Below are positions 80-24,354 of a stretch of 64,000 nt of DNA, one piece after another. Position numbers and translations under genes: made by a program. The notes below the pieces were generated by a model. The model did not search any database, was not told the origin of the DNA, and saw only the letters and a list, made by a program, of their open reading frames with translations. The DNA is from a bacterium (GTDB taxonomy: Bacteria > UBA8248). The stretch covers positions 3,712,001 to 3,776,000 of the forward strand of contig OZ241875.1 in NCBI GenBank assembly GCA_965203325.1. Reading direction: 5' to 3'. The number at the start of each line of letters is the position of its first letter. Within the stretch, counting starts at the first letter, position 1.

Positions 80-1342
80 ATGTCCGGAAACGGCGCAACA
101 CGGTTCGAGGAGATGGTCGCTTTTTACAGCGGCCGCGCGCGCTCGCCGTTCGCCGACTATTTCGCCGATCCTTACCGATTCTTCGCGTGGGCCAGGGCCG
201 AGGCGCCCGTCCTGCACGTGCCGGAAGTCGACTGGTGGGCGGTCGCCCGTTTTGACGATATCATGTCGGTCTTCCGGGACCTGGAAACCTTCTCTACGGC
301 CAACGTCCGTCGGCCCATGGCGCCGCTTTGTCCCAGGGCAATGGAGATTTACGAGTCGGCCGCTATCCGGATGGAGCCGACGCTGATCGACGAGGAGCCG
401 CAGACCCATCGCCGTCACCGGCGCATCTTCGGCGAGGGTTTTTCCGCGCGGCGCGTCGAGCGCTACGAGCCGAGAATCCGCGCAATCGTTTCGCGCCTTA
501 TCGAGGATTTCGCGGGCGAGGGCCGCGCGGACCTTCACGTCCGGCTTCTGCAGCCGACCGCCGGCAGAATGACCTTTCATCTTCTCGGCGGCGCCGACGA
601 GGATTTCGATCTGGCCGACTGGCCAGGCGGGATGCGGCGGGTCGAAATCCTGGGACCCCCGACGGAGGCGGCGCAAGTCTCGTTCATGGAAATCCTCGCC
701 CGGTTGTGGCCCTTCGGCGGCAGGCTGGCCGAGGCCGCGATCAAAAATCCTGGCGACAACTATCTCGGCGACCTCGTCCGGCTGCGTCGCGAGGACCCCT
801 CCCTGTTCACGGATAACTACTTTCACAACGTCGTGCTCCTGCTGCAAACCGCCGGAGCGGACAACCAGAGCCACGCGCTGGCCAACGGTATCCGGGCGAT
901 GCTCGATGCCCGGACGCCTTGGGAGCGCCTGTGCGCCGACCCCGGCCTCATCCCCAACGCTGTGGAGGAAATCCTGCGTTTCGGCACGCCCCTCATCGCG
1001 TTTCCGAGGCTCGCGACCCGCGACGCCGAGATCGGCGGGCGGCGAATCGCCGCAGGCTCCGGGATTTTGCTGCTGCTCGCTTCCGGCAACCGCGACGAGA
1101 CCGTGTTCCCGGACGGCGAGACGCTGGACATCGAGCGCGAGAATGCCGGAGATCACCTCTCGTTCGGCTACGGTGCGCATTTCTGTCTCGGGGCGCCGCT
1201 CGCCCGACTCGAGATGAAGATTATCCTGGAGGAGTTGACCTCGCGCCTGCCCCACATGCGGCTGGCCGACGGCGGCGTTCCGGACGTATTTCGGACGTTC
1301 ACGTTCCGGGGGCTGAAGCGCCTGCCCGTCGAATGGGATTGA
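80..1342 (+). CDS. Cytochrome P450
   Basis: Heme motif FGYGAHFCLG, K-helix EEILR, I-helix AGADNQ; purine-rich SD (GGAGAGG) upstream. Confidence 0.95.
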   Translation: MSGNGATRFEEMVAFYSGRARSPFADYFADPYRFFAWARAEAPVLHVPEVDWWAVARFDDIMSVFRDLETFSTANVRRPMAPLCPRAMEIYESAAIRMEPTLIDEEPQTHRRHRRIFGEGFSARRVERYEPRIRAIVSRLIEDFAGEGRADLHVRLLQPTAGRMTFHLLGGADEDFDLADWPGGMRRVEILGPPTEAAQVSFMEILARLWPFGGRLAEAAIKNPGDNYLGDLVRLRREDPSLFTDNYFHNVVLLLQTAGADNQSHALANGIRAMLDARTPWERLCADPGLIPNAVEEILRFGTPLIAFPRLATRDAEIGGRRIAAGSGILLLLASGNRDETVFPDGETLDIERENAGDHLSFGYGAHFCLGAPLARLEMKIILEELTSRLPHMRLADGGVPDVFRTFTFRGLKRLPVEWD

Positions 1343-1547
1343 GCGGAGCCCGTCGCGCGTCCGGCCCCGGGCGACCGGGAGTGAGGCGGCGAGAGCGGGG
1401 CGCGTTGCCCTGCGCCGCGCCGGGGGACGGAACCCGCCTCGTTTCGTCGTTCGCAAACGCAGTTTCATGTCTGGATTCGACGGACTCGCCGCGGCCGCTC
1501 CGTTCCGGGCGATTCGTCGATATTCAACGGACCCAAGGAGGGAGCGA

Positions 1548-18156: not shown

Positions 18157-19002
18157 ATGGCTACGGACGAACACACGATTCACCATGAAGACATGCGAGG
18201 CCGGATTCTCTCAGCGGATTCGATGACGTATTTTGACGAAAGGGTTGGGGAAAGGGACGTTCTCATTGGAGGTTCTTACGCCGCACGAATGACGATTGCC
18301 TGGGCAATGCGGCTGGGTGCGAGAGCAATCATTGCCCATGCAGCGGGAGTCGGGAAGGATGATGCGGGGATCAGCGGCTTGTCTTTGGCTCAGGAATATC
18401 ATGTGCCTGCGCTGGCGTGTGAGACCATGTCCGCGAGGCTCGCCGCGGGAGAATCCGTGTATGAAGGCAAAGTCGGCCATGCGAATCAGGCAGCCCGAAG
18501 TCTTGGTGTTGAAATCGGTCAGTCGATTGCTGAAGCTTCGAATCATTTGCTCGATGCCGAGATGGGCCGGAAAGTAATTGTCGAGGAAAGTCTTGATGAT
18601 AGAATTTATGAACTAGAGCAATTTCCGAATGGTAACATACGCGCTTCATGGGGTATTCCCGTCCTGCGTTCCATCAAAGAACCAAGGCCAGATGATGTCT
18701 TTATCCAGGCTTCTCATTGCGGACTTACTCTCGTCCCTCATGTTATGGAGCTTAATCTGAAGGGTGTAATTGCGAATGATGCGGGCCGGGGGAAAGATGA
18801 TTCTGGTATCGCGTCTTTCCCCTATCTGTCGCGAGAGGGGATAGCCGTGGCGGCGGTCGGCGCAATGAGCGCGCGCATTGGCGATGTGATGAGCACATGG
18901 GAGGACGGCATCATTTCATGTATGAATGAAGTAGCCGAAAAGCGTGGGGTGCGAGAAGGCATGCGGACGCGAGAGGCGGCTCACGCCATGCTCAATGCGT
19001 GA
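18157..19002 (+). CDS. Hypothetical protein built from two homologous halves
   Basis: IIAHAAGVGKDDAGI...TMSARL...ANQAARSLGVEIGQSIAEA versus VIANDAGRGKDDSGI...AMSARI...MNEVAEKRGVREGMRTREA. Confidence 0.8.
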   Translation: MATDEHTIHHEDMRGRILSADSMTYFDERVGERDVLIGGSYAARMTIAWAMRLGARAIIAHAAGVGKDDAGISGLSLAQEYHVPALACETMSARLAAGESVYEGKVGHANQAARSLGVEIGQSIAEASNHLLDAEMGRKVIVEESLDDRIYELEQFPNGNIRASWGIPVLRSIKEPRPDDVFIQASHCGLTLVPHVMELNLKGVIANDAGRGKDDSGIASFPYLSREGIAVAAVGAMSARIGDVMSTWEDGIISCMNEVAEKRGVREGMRTREAAHAMLNA

Positions 19003-19011
19003 GGGTTTCAA

Positions 19012-19087
19012 TGGTGGAGGTGAGGGGATTCGAACCCCTGACCTCGTGGGTGCGATCCACGCGCTCTCCCATCTGAGCTACACCCCC
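19012..19087 (-). tRNA. tRNA-Ala(CGC)
   Basis: 76-nt cloverleaf GGGGGTGTAGCTCAG...TTCGAATCCCCTCACCTCCACCA; anticodon loop ATCGCAC; G3:U70 pair; encoded CCA. Confidence 0.97.
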
Positions 19088-19101
19088 ACAAAAGGAACTT
19101 G

Positions 19102-19130
19102 AAGGTAGGCGAAGGAGCTTCGGGTGTCAA
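19102..19130 (-). promoter_or_regulatory. Sigma70-type promoter of tRNA-Ala
   Basis: TTGACA-17 nt-TACCTT on the minus strand just upstream of the tRNA. Confidence 0.65.
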
Positions 19131-19140
19131 GTAAAATAGG

Positions 19141-19384
19141 GAGAGCCGATGAAGAACTCCCCCTAGGAGACTTCACCGGCTCTCGACCTGCCGCAGAGTC
19201 CGCCCGTTTCCCCCGCAGCAGGGAATTGCTTTTGACTTGAAACAGGAGCCGAGGACTCAACCCCTGAGGTGCATTATCCTCTACTCCCAATCCTGATTTT
19301 GGTGAGAGCCGGGGGATAACCCTCCGAGGATTTTCCCCCGGCTCTCGTCCCGTCGCAGAGTCCGCCCGTTTCCCCCACGACGGG
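19141..19384 (-). ncRNA. Unidentified tandem structured-RNA-like module (two copies of a two-hairpin unit plus one related hairpin)
   Basis: Units at 19304-19384 and 19141-19222; identical 12-nt loop GAAACGGGCGGA; stem differences are compensatory or G-U on the minus strand. Confidence 0.55.
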
Positions 19385-19393
19385 TAAATAATT

Positions 19394-22300
19394 TCAAGAA
19401 CACCCACTCGTTGCGCCACAAGTCATACACTTCAGACACGTGCCGTTTCGCACCAAGGTGAATGAACCACAATCGCCACATGCCTCACCCTCATACCCTT
19501 TGGCGCGGGCTTCTTCGATACGCGAATCGAGGGCGGAGCCTGCTTCTGCTATAGGCGTCAACGAAGCGATGGTGGATTCTTTCTCATAATTCAAACTTAT
19601 CCGGTCACTGCGCGGTGCACTCGCATCCGGTCCCGGGAATACCGTTTGAATCTCCTCTTCTTCTTCGGTGTCGAATTCCGGTATCTCTTCCTGAGGGCGT
19701 CCAATCGTGTCGCTCCTCAAATCCTCCGACACGACTTGTGCAAGATCGTGGCGACCGAGATATGAAACTGCCAACTCACGGAAGATGTAATCGATGATGG
19801 AGGTGCTCATCTTGATGTGCGGGTTTCCTGAAACCGCTCCCCCGGGCTCGAAACGTGTGAAGACGAAGGCATCCACGAATTCATCCAGAGGGACGCCGTG
19901 CTGGAGACCCAGCGAAATTGCGATGGCGAAACAGTTCATGAGGCTTCTGAAGGCAGCGCCTTCTTTGTGCATATCTATGAAAATTTCGCCGATAGAGCCA
20001 TCCTCGTATTCTCCGGTTCTAAGATATACCTTGTGTCCACCGATGACGGCTTTTTGTGTGTATCCACCACGGCGGGTAGGCAACTTGCGTCTTCTGGATT
20101 GGTAAATGATCCGGCGCACAATTTGCTGAGCTACGTGCACGGGAGCGCTTTGAGTAGCTGGTTCTTCCTCATTGATGTCAGCGAAGAGTTCTGCTTCGCT
20201 TTGCGCGGAAAGGGGTTGGCTTAGTTTCGAGCCATCGCGGTAAATCGCTATGGCTTTGGTCATCCGCTGCCACGATTCATGGTAGATGTCCAAAATATCT
20301 TGAATCGTTGATTCCGCGGGCATGTTGATGGTTTTGCTGATGGCGCCTGATATGAAAGGCTGCGCCGCCGCCATCATCCGGACGTGCGCCATGGGGCTGA
20401 TGAAGCGTTTGCCTTCGCGCCCGCATTTGCTCGCGCAATCAAATACAGCCAAGTGCTCTTCTTTTAGGTGGGGTGCGCCCTCAAGCGTCATTTTCCCGCA
20501 AACGAAATCATTCGCTTCGCTGATTTGCTCTGGAGTGAAACCAATGGCTTCGAGCAGATTCATATCCCAGTCGCTTATCTGCGATTCACTGAGTCCTAAT
20601 TGCTCACGACAGAAGTCTTCACCGAGGGAGTATTTGTTGAAGGCAAACTGGATTTCAAACGCCCCTTCGAGCGCGGCTTCCACTTTTTCCAGAGCCTTGC
20701 TCGTAAACCCTTTCTCATGCAAAGACTCCGGATTGATATGAGGCGCATTCGTGAGGGTGCCCCGCCCTCGGCAATAGGCGACGATTTCGCGGACCTCTTC
20801 ATCGTCATAGCCCAGATGCCGCAAGGCAACGGGAACGGATTGGTTGATGATCTTGAAATAACCGCCTCCGGCCAGTTTTTTGAATTTCACCAAGGCAAAA
20901 TCCGGTTCGATTCCCGTTGTGTCACAATCCATCACCAGACCAATGGTGCCTGTCGGCGCGATAACTGTGGCTTGTGCGTTCCGGTAGCCGTTTCGATAGC
21001 CGATGGCCAAAGCATCGTCCCACGCTTCACGCGCCGCTTGGAGAAGATAATCGGGACAGATACCCGCAGCAATTCCGTTTGGCGCTTTAGAGAGCATTTC
21101 GTATTCTGCTTCCGGTACGGAATAAGCTGCGCGGCGGTGGTTTCTCAGAACTCGTAGCATATGTTCTTGGTTATCTTGATATCTGACGAAGGCGCCCAGT
21201 TCTCCGGCCATCTCGGCGCTGGTGGCGTACGAGCAGCCTGTCATGATCGAGGTGAGAGCGCCGCACCACGCTTCCGCTTCCGGAGAATCGTAAGGGATGC
21301 CGAGAACCATTAACGCAGTGCCGAGATTGGCATACCCAAGCCCCAGGGTACGATACTCGAATGAGCGTTTGGCTATTTCCGGGCTGGGGAATTGCGCCAT
21401 GAGCACGGAAATTTCGAGGACAACCGTCAATAGACGAATGACATGACGATAGTCTTCTATCTGGAAATGATTCTTTTCAGTATCTAGGAATTTCATGAGA
21501 TTCATGGATGCCAGATTGCATGCGGTGTCATCCAGGAACATATATTCCGAGCAGGGATTAGAACCATTGATACGCCCATCAGTGGCGCACGTGTGCCAGT
21601 CGTTGATAGTCGTATCGAATTGAAGGCCTGGGTCTGCGCAACACCACGCCGCATACCCAATCTGATCCCAAAGTTCTTTTGAACTAACGGAGTCGGCGAT
21701 TTCACCATCGGTCCGCCGAATCAAGTTCCACTTCGTATTTTTCTCGATGGCTTTCATGAATTTATCTGAAACACGTACCGAATTGTTCGAGTTTTGTCCG
21801 GACGCCGAGGCGTAGGCCTCGCCTTCCCAATTCGTGTCGAATTCCTCGAACTCGATCTCGGTGATGCCTTGCTGCGCGAGTTGAAGAGTTCGATGAATGT
21901 AATTGTCCGGAACACCGGCGAGCCTTGCGGCGCGTATCGCTTTGGCGAGCGATGGGTTCTTGTCCGGCTGATGGAGGTTGCCATTCAAGGTCAGGTTCTT
22001 CTCTTTCCGGCAAGCTCCGAGAATGGCGTTCATGTGCCGGTTGCACATCTTGCTGCCCGATACGAGCGCAGCCACTTTCTGTTCTTCGTGCACCTTCCAG
22101 TTGATGAATTCCTCGATGTCGGGATGATCGATATCGAGCGTGACCATTTTCGCCGCGCGGCGTGTCGTGCCGCCCGACTTGATGGCGCCCGCAGCGCGGT
22201 CCCCAATCTTGAGGAAACTCATCAGGCCGGAGCTTTTTCCGCCTCCCGAGAGAGATTCTCCTTCTGCTCTCAAGCTAGTGAAATTCGTGCCGGTGCCCGA

Positions 22301-22984
22301 GCCGTATTTGAAGATGCGCGCCTCTCGCGTCCATAAATCCATGATCCCACCCTCGTTGACGAGATCATCTTTCACCGATTGGATGAAGCACGCGTGCGGC
22401 TGGGGACGTTCATAGGCGTTGGTGGAGCGGAGTATTTCCCCGGTTTCGGGGTCGCAATAGAAATGGCCCTGTGCGGGGCGCGTAATGCCGTAGGCCCAGT
22501 GGAGGCCCGTATTGAACCACTGCGGCGAGTTGGGAGCCGCCATCTGGCTCGCGAGTATGTATACAAGCTCCTCATAGAACGCCTTGGCGTCCTCTTCGGT
22601 GTGAAAATAACCGTGTTTCCAGCCCCAATACGTCCAGCATCCCGCCAGGCGGTGGAAAACGTCCCGTGCGTCTTGTTCGCTCCCGTATTGCTCATCCTCG
22701 GGCAGGGATTCGAGTTTTTCCGTGTCCGGCTCCGAGCGCTGCAGCCACTCGGGCACGCCGTCTTCGGGAATCTTTTTCGAGTGGGCGGGGACGCCGGCTT
22801 TTCGGAAGTATTTTTGCGCCAGGATGTCGACGGCCACCTGAGACCAGTTCTCCGGCGCCATGATGTCCTTCGCTTCGAAGACGACCGAACCGTCCGGGTT
22901 GGTGATGCGTGAGGTGCGCGGCGCGAAACCGACCTCGCTATACGCGTCATCTCCGTCCCGTGTAAAACGCCTCGTAAACTCCAC
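19394..22984 (-). CDS. nrdJ: Vitamin B12-dependent (class II) ribonucleotide reductase with C-terminal TSCPD-like region
   Basis: [29 protein letters not shown]-terminal CGDC...[14 protein letters not shown] start after AAGGAG. Confidence 0.96.
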
Positions 22985-23051
22985 TTCCCGTCTCCTTCGC
23001 AGGGCGCCCCGCTATGCCGGGGCATATTTAGTATGACGAAATCAAGCCGTA

Positions 23052-23166
23052 ACACTAAATGTAGTATGTTTTGCTATCGTCTGTCAATACCCTAAAAACG
23101 GATATGCACAAAATATATGAACTTACCCACACGTTATCCCCAAATGTTGTGTTTTCCTGTGGATAA
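23052..23166 (-). promoter_or_regulatory. nrdJ promoter with two NrdR-box-like sites and DnaA boxes
   Basis: ACACTAAATGTAGTAT (23052-23067) and TCCCCAAATGTTGTGT (23137-23152); TTGACA (23087-23082)-18 nt-TACATT; perfect DnaA box TGTGGATAA at 23158-23166 plus two one-mismatch boxes at 23123 and 23134. Confidence 0.7.
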
Positions 23167-23755
23167 GCGGCGCAAGAAGGGCAATTGGGGGCAGAGTACC
23201 GCGCCGTCAGCCCGCACCGCCTCGTTTTGAGGGGCCGCGACGCGCCCCGGGAAGGTGCGCCGGAGCGCCTGAATCTGGAGGGAAGAGCCGCCATCCGCCA
23301 GGCTGATACCGCGAAAAACGCCCTGCAACTCCCCGCATTTGCGCGCATTTCCCCTCGTTAATTTATCGAAAAACACCGTGAATTTATCTGAATTTATCGA
23401 ATTTTTCAGTATTGTTCAGGAATGGTAAGGCTCGGTTTCGCCGCCCGGCGTTCGCCGCAATGACCCCCTCTCCCTGAAACCCGGATAGCGCTGTGAGAGA
23501 TTCTGCAACGGCCGTCCTCCAAGCGGCGACCCGTGGCTTCAAGAGCGAAGACCGCGCGTCGAGCAGGGGGATGGTACACCCTTTCGGAACGCGCTTCTGC
23601 GGGGAAATGCGTGGTCGAACCCGTCTGAGGATGGGGGTCAAGCGCGAGTGAGGAGGGAGCGTTTGCCGACCAATGTGGGGGTCAGCTTTTCCGGTACGGG
23701 GGTAGGAGAGACTGAGGCAGGAGGGGCTGGGCGACGGATTAACACACAGGGTCGC

Positions 23756-24121
23756 TCAGTCCTGCTCCAAGAGTACAGCCAGCTTTTCGAGCGTCTCGCC
23801 CACCACGCGCGGCGGAGCCTGCGACGCGAGGCGCGCGCCTCTGGCGCGCCAATCGAGGCTCTTCACCTGATCGGCGAGAACCACGCCCGTAACGGGGCCT
23901 TCGGCGGGCAGCGTCACCTCGAAGGGATAGCCCTTGACTCTCGAGGTGATGGGGCAGAGCAGCGCCAGACTGCTTTTCTCGTTATAGCTTCGGGGGCTGA
24001 CGACCAGCGCGGGGCGGCGACCCGCCTGCTCGTGCCCGGCCTGGGGGGTGAAAGAAAGCCAGACGACGTCGCCTCTGCCCGGAACGTAGTCCGCGCCTGA
24101 AACCTCCCGTCTCGCTATCAC
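23756..24121 (-). CDS. mazF: MazF/PemK-family endoribonuclease toxin
   Basis: YVPGRGDVVWLSFTPQAGHEQAGRRPALVVS...KGYPFEV...DQVKSLDW; GTG overlaps the antitoxin stop. Confidence 0.93.
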   Translation of the reverse strand: MIARREVSGADYVPGRGDVVWLSFTPQAGHEQAGRRPALVVSPRSYNEKSSLALLCPITSRVKGYPFEVTLPAEGPVTGVVLADQVKSLDWRARGARLASQAPPRVVGETLEKLAVLLEQD

Positions 24122-24354
24122 GCCTCGGCGCCCTGCGCCGGACCGGCGTCTTGCTCGGCGTGTAGGTTGCCCGCGTTTATTTCGGCGAGCATGTCGGCCA
24201 GTCGGTAACCTCTCTTTCTCATCACCACCCGGTCGCCGCGCGCGTTCATCTCGATGGCCGAACCCTCGCGCACGCCCCATTGCTCGGCGATGGGCTTGGG
24301 GATGCGGACGGCCAGGCTGTCCCCCCATTTGGCGATGTGCGATTTTGCACCCAT
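24118..24354 (-). CDS. mazE: MazE/AbrB-family antitoxin
   Basis: KWGDSLAVRIPK AbrB motif; AGGAGG SD; coupled to mazF. Confidence 0.92.
   Translation of the reverse strand: MGAKSHIAKWGDSLAVRIPKPIAEQWGVREGSAIEMNARGDRVVMRKRGYRLADMLAEINAGNLHAEQDAGPAQGAEA

Follow-up and report, generated by a model that had tools for sequence, protein, structure and literature searches.

Tandem, covarying two-hairpin RNA modules behind the ribonucleotide reductase gene nrdJ in one family of Nitrospinota

What is a series of related hairpins doing between nrdJ and a tRNA-Ala gene, on which strand is it maintained, and what might it bind? To our knowledge, structured, sequence-specific elements are few in bacterial 3' untranslated regions (UTRs), and tandem ones are fewer. 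The locus lies in a window of 64,000 nucleotides (the whole stretch of DNA that was analysed), for which a sequence-only reading, made without database searches, had described a duplicated two-hairpin RNA module on the minus strand. Every hairpin and loop of that description, together with the spacer and the linker, was found in its place on the minus strand, and the locus behind nrdJ is laid out as follows (coordinates of the window).

19394..22984, minus strand: nrdJ, an open reading frame (ORF) of 1196 aa with the Pfam domains Ribonuc_red_2_N, Ribonuc_red_lgC and TSCPD
19396-19394, minus strand: nrdJ stop codon TGA, followed by a 9-nt spacer before hairpin I
19349..19384, minus strand: hairpin I of module 1, with a 12-bp stem (sequence, fold, covariation and a match of 104 bits to covariance model R1)
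19361-19372, minus strand: loop of hairpin I of module 1, GAAACGGGCGGA, 12 nt
19304..19346, minus strand: hairpin II of module 1, closing stem GAGAGCCGG/CCGGCUCUC, apex CCUCGGAGG (sequence, fold, R1)
19245..19287, minus strand: remnant of a middle module, a lone hairpin II of 43 nt (fold; comparison with three-module relatives)
19187..19222, minus strand: hairpin I of module 2 (the last), with loop GAAACGGGCGGA at 19199-19210 (sequence, fold, R1 match of 93.9 bits)
19141..19184, minus strand: hairpin II of module 2 (the last), probable terminator stem of nrdJ (sequence, fold, terminator-like scan)
19131..19140, minus strand: U-rich tail CCUAUUUUAC after the last hairpin II (sequence)
19102..19130, minus strand: putative tRNA-Ala promoter, TTGACA (19130-19125), 17 nt, TACCTT (19107-19102) (sequence); it bounds the RNA element and is not part of it
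19012..19087, minus strand: tRNA-Ala, anticodon CGC, the downstream neighbour (Rfam match)

Each module consists of a hairpin I and a hairpin II and measures about 85 nt. At the top of stem I, G-C pairs alternate with G.U pairs, and hairpin II consists of a long stem that covaries; in module 1 the two are joined by a linker of 2 nt, and the A-rich stretch ACCAAAAU lies directly 3' of hairpin II. The six differences between the two copies of stem I all keep the pairing, exactly as had been described, with two double changes and two C-G/U-G swaps, and the 12-nt loop said to be invariant between the units is indeed GAAACGGGCGGA in both copies. The term 'duplicated' needs correction: the array is more than a simple duplication, and the 43-nt hairpin between the two full units is hairpin II of a third, decayed module. 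Model R1 recognises no full module at 19245..19287, and two mismatching bases stand in the 5' arm of this hairpin. The genome under study thus carries two full modules and one decayed copy; by comparison with three-module relatives, hairpin I of the middle module was deleted in the lineage of genomes G000 (the one under study), G012 and G016, and the remaining stem is decaying.

On the minus strand the predicted fold consists of the described hairpins and reaches -137 kcal/mol (z -7.46; none of 200 shuffles did as well), and the plus strand folds more weakly, at -108.8 kcal/mol (z -5.65), though still better than shuffles. Covariation was assessed in two alignments. In the first, made with MAFFT from 70 distinct modules of relatives and used as the source of model R1, 98.9% of the cells of hairpin I are paired, double-sided changes occur in 6 of its 12 pairs, and the covariation score was reached by none of 500 shuffles. 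The second, of 103 modules (83 distinct), is model-fitted, and such fitting leans towards the structure of the model; among its 83 distinct modules 96.1% of the cells of both hairpins are paired, with double changes in 25 of 31 pairs and, in the outer stem of hairpin II, in 13 of 13. None of 500 shuffles matched the model-fitted values, and sliding the partner by one to three columns left pairing at only 46-55%. Two pairs at the stem top of hairpin I are kept as G.U, in 68/83 and 82/83 modules respectively. Since these conserved G.U pairs would be A.C mismatches on the opposite strand, the constraint lies on RNA of the nrdJ sense strand, and the earlier remark that the wobbles work only on the minus strand is borne out. 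Judged by covariation in both hairpins, the invariant loop and the conserved G.U pairs, the structure of the module is under selection on the nrdJ sense strand, as had been proposed.

Selection also extends to individual letters. Across the family the lower stems vary freely while the loop and stem top, with 13 invariant nucleotides, stay fixed. The letters identical in all 83 modules are CGGGCGGAC, which comprises the 3' part of loop I and the first stem base, plus three G in the 5' arm and another C in the 3' arm; the next bases, U, U and G, recur in 81-82 modules. The 12-nt loop I ends in the invariant ACGGGCGGA. Both loops are G-rich and they differ from each other: loop I ends in GGA in 83/83 modules, whereas the apex of hairpin II, with the consensus CCU-NGG-RGG, has an A after NGG in only 30/83. 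Comparison of the modules in this way supports the claim of a sequence-specific loop in the nrdJ 3' UTR, CGGGCGGAC and the further bases being the same in every module. Two structural explanations of the loop were rejected, namely a loop that begins like GNRA (its opening positions are variable among the 83 distinct modules, with G/C/A and A/U/C/G) and a two-quartet G-quadruplex in GGGGGAAACGGGCGG (the G runs are not preserved in other genera).

The distribution of the element is narrow. In the 4.39-Mb genome, model R1 gives two full matches, both at the nrdJ locus. The 12-nt loop sequence occurs six times in the genome, the four other sites having no stem, and a permissive genome scan for a lone hairpin I elsewhere returned 183 candidates with 7-8 of 8 stem pairs and the full motif only at the two known sites. 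The whole spacer between nrdJ and the tRNA gene is conserved at one locus in 20 of the 22 other genomes of the genus. R1 places the element in 37 of 51 genomes of the phylum (G000 counted); it is carried by 36 of the 41 other genomes of the GTDB family, always as one cluster on one contig, and by 0 of 9 genomes of three sister families, in which nrdJ has the same zinc-finger C-terminus and is then followed by unrelated sequence, without the tRNA and without modules. Five genomes of the family gave no match: nrdJ ends about 10 and about 41 nt from a contig end in two of them, and its C-terminus was not found in the remaining three. No assembled counter-example, that is, an nrdJ 3' flank without modules, was found in the family. 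On G017:C9 and G056:C333 (loci L251 and L252) the contig breaks 10-41 nt past the nrdJ stop, and tandem modules may be the cause of these breaks in short-read assemblies.

A pattern scan of 185,579 species genomes returned 66 loci. Members account for 29 of them, with 11-12 of 12 stem pairs and a hairpin II, under record titles naming Nitrospinota, Nitrospinaceae, 'Tectomicrobia' or a MAG; the other 37 are chance matches in coding sequence with at most 10 stem pairs. nrdJ lies directly upstream in 29/29 member loci and tRNA-Ala(CGC) downstream in 24/29. The same kind of scan in metagenomes found at least seven further members, seven of seven behind nrdJ (80 of 119 stretches examined). 'Tectomicrobia' was rejected as a second phylum: locus L060 is the same stretch as locus L109 of genome G041, whose genus belongs to the same GTDB family, and the distribution is therefore that of one family. 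Searching genome and relatives with a covariance model, a check that had been suggested from the sequence, yielded a single locus in each carrier, always in the context of nrdJ, with covariation in both hairpins. The element is thus confined to one Nitrospinota family, with a single locus in each genome that carries it and nrdJ invariably in front.

The element also agrees with the earlier impression that it belongs to no known family. At the gathering score, Rfam 15 matches only the tRNA in the whole window; with E up to 10 over 18900-19600, the module stretch draws only sub-threshold matches, chiefly to miRNA and snoRNA families, of 10-22 bits against gathering scores of 43-128 and with E of about 0.3 or worse. 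A full-text literature search, judged from the search results, returned no description of an nrdJ module element.

Palindromes that stand in tandem between two genes, next to a tRNA gene, on a stretch whose plus strand also folds better than shuffles, could in principle act as DNA: as a palindromic repeat of the REP type, as a protein site for the tRNA promoter, or as a recombination site. The REP and BIME elements of enterobacteria are GC-rich palindromes, often in tandem and located in 3' UTRs or intergenic regions, which stabilise the upstream mRNA against exonucleases; REPs occur in hundreds of dispersed copies in both orientations. The nrdJ element differs from them in its one locus, one orientation and invariant loop. 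Many dispersed copies had been named in advance as the mark of such a repeat, and blastn with the units found nothing in the 4.39-Mb genome beyond the two local copies, as did the covariance model. All members have the array in one orientation with respect to nrdJ, the conserved G.U pairs would be A.C on the opposite strand, the compensatory changes keep RNA-type pairing, and the pattern has 0 matches in viral contigs, for which reason a phage origin was rejected as well. Function at the DNA level therefore appears extremely improbable. A CRISPR array was likewise rejected, since the copies of hairpin I differ in their stems and what would be the 'spacers' are hairpin II units of about 69 nt, which are conserved and covary.

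If the element is RNA, the next question is whether it belongs to the nrdJ transcript and where that transcript ends. In RNA libraries, contigs that belong to relatives and are for the most part 85-95% identical extend from the nrdJ coding sequence into the modules (X1, X3 and X4). Record 4 of X1, of 1898 nt, aligns over 19311-20900 and has 154 further letters beyond 19311, part of them placed by a joint that ends at 19220; record 18 of X3 covers 19347-19569, record 27 of X4 covers 19330-19519, and record 11 of X2 covers 19157-19295. These contigs come from relatives, are blind to ends, strand and level, and may include carried-over DNA, and they are weak positive evidence that the modules are co-transcribed with nrdJ; they speak, to the same degree, against the lack of transcription that had been named as a refuting outcome.

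On the 3' end the sequence-only reading needs correction. It had reported no U-tracts, which is wrong for the last module: behind its hairpin II stands CCUAUUUUAC (19140-19131), at a site flagged as terminator-like; the scan picks out 19165-19137 plus the U tail, in an alternative register that abuts UUUU. Among the modules of relatives, the 10 nt that follow hairpin II contain four or more U in 27 of 33 last copies, compared with 11 of the 55 internal ones; in 45 of these 55 they contain four or more A. Like an intrinsic terminator, the last hairpin II is GC-rich and precedes a U-rich tract; unlike one, it has its U tract begin 2-4 nt past the full stem, and the A-rich tracts after internal copies of hairpin II, hairpin I and the conserved loops are not terminator features. 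From this arrangement, the last hairpin II and the U-rich tract probably terminate nrdJ. At 19137-19165 (minus strand) of the last module, an alternative 11-pair hairpin, UAGGGGGAGUU ... GGCUCUCCCUA, runs up to UUUU and is incompatible with the full hairpin II; it may have a role in termination or switching, and the full hairpin II is far more stable.

Downstream of this point, the tRNA gene does appear to have a promoter of its own, as had been noted: TTGACA, 17 nt and TACCTT are present and conserved, though a scan for consensus promoters left this site before tRNA-Ala unflagged, and a TTGACA-N16-18-TAnnTT pattern comes after the modules in 24 of the 33 distinct loci. Locus L013 has kept its modules with no tRNA downstream, in keeping with a link in cis to nrdJ. 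These observations bear on the idea that the nascent two-hairpin module binds RNA polymerase, alters its response to the terminator and so tunes read-through from nrdJ into tRNA-Ala, in the manner of put RNA of phage HK022, two adjacent hairpins that act in cis on the transcribing polymerase. The hairpins of a module are joined by only 2-3 nt, are conserved in sequence and lie upstream of a terminator-like site, and the order nrdJ-modules-tRNA is conserved in 24/29 loci. Against it, the tRNA-Ala gene has its own conserved promoter, and modules persist without the tRNA (L013; 5/29 loci); we regard this action on polymerase as very improbable. In lambda sib, the case of RNase III retroregulation, cleavage of a 3'-UTR hairpin decides the fate of the upstream message; put and sib are both single-copy phage elements, and the nrdJ pattern has no match in viral contigs.

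The same 3' end might be entirely passive, with hairpins that need no specific partner to halt 3'-to-5' exonucleases, end nrdJ transcription and shield the tRNA-Ala promoter from read-through. The stems are very stable, the U-rich tail of the last hairpin lies directly before the tRNA promoter, and copy number is flexible, one hairpin I having been lost in a lineage. Such a barrier has no need of 13 invariant nucleotides in loop and stem top, or of conserved G.U pairs, while the stems drift family-wide, and the sister families manage their nrdJ without modules; we consider a purely passive end doubtful, with a small chance of being right. Sequence-specific docking is favoured over it because a passive barrier needs neither the invariant letters nor the G.U pairs.

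How far the number of modules matters can be judged from its variation. Among 33 distinct loci, four have one module, eight have two, sixteen have three and five have four, and relatives within the genus have 2, 3 or 4 at a period of about 100 nt. Because one module suffices in 4/33 loci and a hairpin I was lost in one lineage, multiplicity is not essential. The junction with the gene is variable too: the nrdJ stop codon is TGA here, TAA in L004 and L026, and TAG in L053 and L060, and in the loci that were read the spacer from stop to hairpin I measures between 6 nt and at least 17 nt. A SECIS or recoding hairpin was rejected because the stop codons vary among relatives. In the genus that includes records labelled 'Tectomicrobia', two small ORFs of 83-94 aa, paralogous to each other, flank the array between nrdJ and tRNA-Ala (L060:432-683 and 1122-1364, plus strand; L088:811-1095 and 177-431, minus strand) and share the motif EQKLFG...EEADKYA. 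They were rejected as a general partner of the modules, since they belong to no Pfam family and have no homologue in the window's genome.

By its Pfam domains (Ribonuc_red_2_N, barrel and TSCPD), nrdJ encodes a class II, B12-dependent ribonucleotide reductase. The barrel domain PF02867 matches only nrdJ in the genome, and PF00268 and PF13597 match nothing there, so that neither a small subunit nor a class III enzyme was detected; no ribonucleotide reductase other than that of nrdJ was found in the genome.

For the function of the modules we tentatively favour, with a confidence that comes close to an even chance without reaching it, a cis-acting platform in the 3' UTR, made of sequence-specific docking hairpins that control the fate of the nrdJ mRNA; we take the module stretch to be the 3' untranslated tail of this mRNA. 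Hairpin I, and perhaps also the apex of hairpin II, would recruit a sequence-specific factor, with a protein as the likeliest candidate. Occupancy of the hairpins would set the survival time of the nrdJ message against 3'-to-5' decay or endonuclease attack, the copy number of modules would set the strength of the effect, and the last hairpin II with its U-rich tail would end nrdJ transcription just before the tRNA-Ala promoter. The closest functional analogue for such docking may be the tail of the transferrin-receptor mRNA, whose 3' UTR contains tandem iron-responsive elements (IREs) and is protected from decay by the protein bound to them. Tandem hairpins, an invariant loop, covarying stems and a 3'-UTR position are common to both. 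IREs are eukaryotic elements with a six-base loop and a bulged C, and their binding protein serves a regulon of several mRNAs, whereas the nrdJ modules occupy one locus per genome.

This last difference is also an argument against a docking regulator, because regulators with a hairpin operator usually have several targets and a single target is unusual. That sister families have an nrdJ with the same zinc-finger C-terminus and no modules counts against docking as well, and so do the dispensable multiplicity of the modules and the limits of the RNA-library contigs. Among candidate binding factors, CsrA, Hfq and DUF1127 proteins were not found in the genome, and a MazF-like gene is not co-distributed with the modules. 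A CsrA sponge of the CsrB/RsmZ type, a kind that has GGA in the loops of many hairpins, was rejected on the grounds that PF02599 has no match in the genome, which is 95% complete (in a control it matches 3 of 14 reference genomes). The MazF-like gene is a MazF/PemK-like toxin ORF at 23756-24328 (minus strand), just upstream of the promoter region of nrdJ, with a Pfam E of 2e-25 for a domain at residues 85-186 of a 190-aa frame. It adjoins nrdJ in several relatives and is present in 12 of the 22 other genomes of the genus, and it was rejected as a processing partner because of this patchy presence and its absence from several module carriers. A type III toxin-antitoxin system like ToxI was rejected too: the gene downstream of the modules is tRNA-Ala, and the MazF-like gene lies upstream of nrdJ, again in 12/22 genus genomes.

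Instead of acting in cis, the modules might be freed from the 3' UTR by cleavage, perhaps at the A-rich linkers, and serve as between one and four homologous small RNAs, or as a sponge, acting in trans through the G-rich loops and coupling other genes to nrdJ expression. Such an architecture equals that of the CcsR1-4 'cuckoo' RNAs, tandem two-hairpin units released by RNase E (PMC8034643). CcsR1-4 are tandem homologous units in the 3' UTR of ccaF1 of Rhodobacter sphaeroides, matured by RNase E, bound by the DUF1127 protein CcaF1 and affected by Hfq (PMC8034643). The two systems are alike in their tandem two-hairpin units, in their conserved loop motifs, in their place in the 3' UTR of a protein gene, and in a copy number and arrangement that vary between lineages (PMC8034643). 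They differ in that the cuckoo loops are C-rich (CCUCCUCCC, anti-Shine-Dalgarno) and alike in both hairpins, whereas those of the nrdJ modules are G-rich and differ, and in that the upstream gene is a small DUF1127 RNA-binding protein there and nrdJ here (PMC8034643). With neither CCUCCUCCC in both loops nor an adjacent DUF1127 gene, and with no Rfam match, the nrdJ modules are not placed in the cuckoo/CcsR group. By analogy, they may work like the CcsR kind without being a member of it, and in architecture CcsR1-4 are the closest described system (PMC8034643).

The small-RNA explanation draws further on the A-rich, single-stranded linkers behind internal modules, on the hairpin and U tail in which the last module ends, much like the 3' end of a small RNA, and on the one locus per genome, which fits a small-RNA gene. 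Against it, an Hfq-dependent small RNA was rejected because PF17209 is without a match in the genome, and a cuckoo-type system because DUF1127 (PF06568) is without one. The loops, being G-rich, cannot pair with Shine-Dalgarno sequences, and neither nrdJ nor the rRNA operon showed a conserved complementary site. Pairing of the loop to the nrdJ coding sequence, where there is a 13-nt complementarity at 19531-19543, was rejected since the core heptamer is present in only 4/26 loci; pairing with rRNA was rejected since TCCGCCCG is absent from the rRNA operon, the nearest occurrence lying 3-5 kb upstream of the 16S site. Invariance moreover reaches into the G.U stem top, beyond the needs of a pairing seed, and the RNA data are contigs only, blind to processed species. 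We judge release of trans-acting RNAs unlikely, if still worth serious attention.

A further set of explanations takes the strict association with nrdJ alone as its starting point and makes each module a small aptamer for a metabolite of the B12-dependent reductase, a nucleotide or cobalamin, with tandem copies giving graded or cooperative control of termination or decay. The invariant loop nucleotides would suit such an aptamer, tandem sensors do occur among riboswitches, and the alternative shorter hairpin at the U tract competes with the last hairpin II. Yet the full hairpin II is far the more stable of the two, the element lies downstream of the gene that it would regulate, and aptamers do not typically consist of long perfect stems that have conserved terminal loops but lack conserved junctions and internal loops. 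Even with E relaxed to 10, Rfam yields no riboswitch family, and a cobalamin or other known riboswitch class was rejected on this ground and on that of the position downstream of nrdJ. An aptamer has, in our view, a slim chance. A protein operator is favoured over it because long perfect stems and conserved terminal loops are usual in protein operators.

It is also conceivable, though doubtful, that the modules form a dedicated sensor on the 3' UTR of the sole B12-dependent reductase, bound by NrdJ itself or by a small ligand (nucleotide or cobalamin), in which the number of occupied modules sets decay or termination. Beside the route through NrdJ we note that, compared with the protein of three sister-family genomes without modules, NrdJ has four insertions of 29-84 residues, at residues 163-191, 312-381, 739-822 and 1076-1106. 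If such a sensor exists, it would parallel, in a bacterium, the multi-IRE tail of transferrin-receptor mRNA, or be the first multi-copy riboswitch in a 3' UTR.

Nitrospinaceae, and Nitrospinota more broadly, are described as the main marine nitrite oxidisers. Because the element sits on the message of the sole ribonucleotide reductase, it bears on the control of DNA-precursor supply in organisms of the ocean nitrogen cycle. With an invariant set of 13 nt in loop and stem top, conserved G.U pairs, covarying stems and one to four copies, the modules, which we favour as docking sites for a sequence-specific factor, offer a handle for finding a new RNA-binding regulator or ligand, and the natural loss of a hairpin I in the lineage of G000 provides a ready-made comparison.

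Two other observations were made along the way. A dispersed repeat of about 200 nt has 10 copies in the genome, none inside the window (for example L129:3140-3330, at about 1715640-1715830 of G000:C1); the one copy whose context was examined, that in L129, lies behind a 622-aa ORF without a Pfam family. The repeat forms a long-range helix, GGGGGUUGCCCGUUG ... CAACGGGCGGCCCC, around a conserved core and has no Rfam match at E up to 0.01. A likeness of the modules to this repeat (GGGGGAACAACGGGCGGC) was rejected and is taken as chance, the shared letters sitting in the long-range helix and not in a loop. On the other side of nrdJ, at 23040-23170 of the window (minus strand), AT-rich imperfect palindromes lie upstream of the gene around a TTGACA; they may represent NrdR boxes, whose consensus they seem to resemble.
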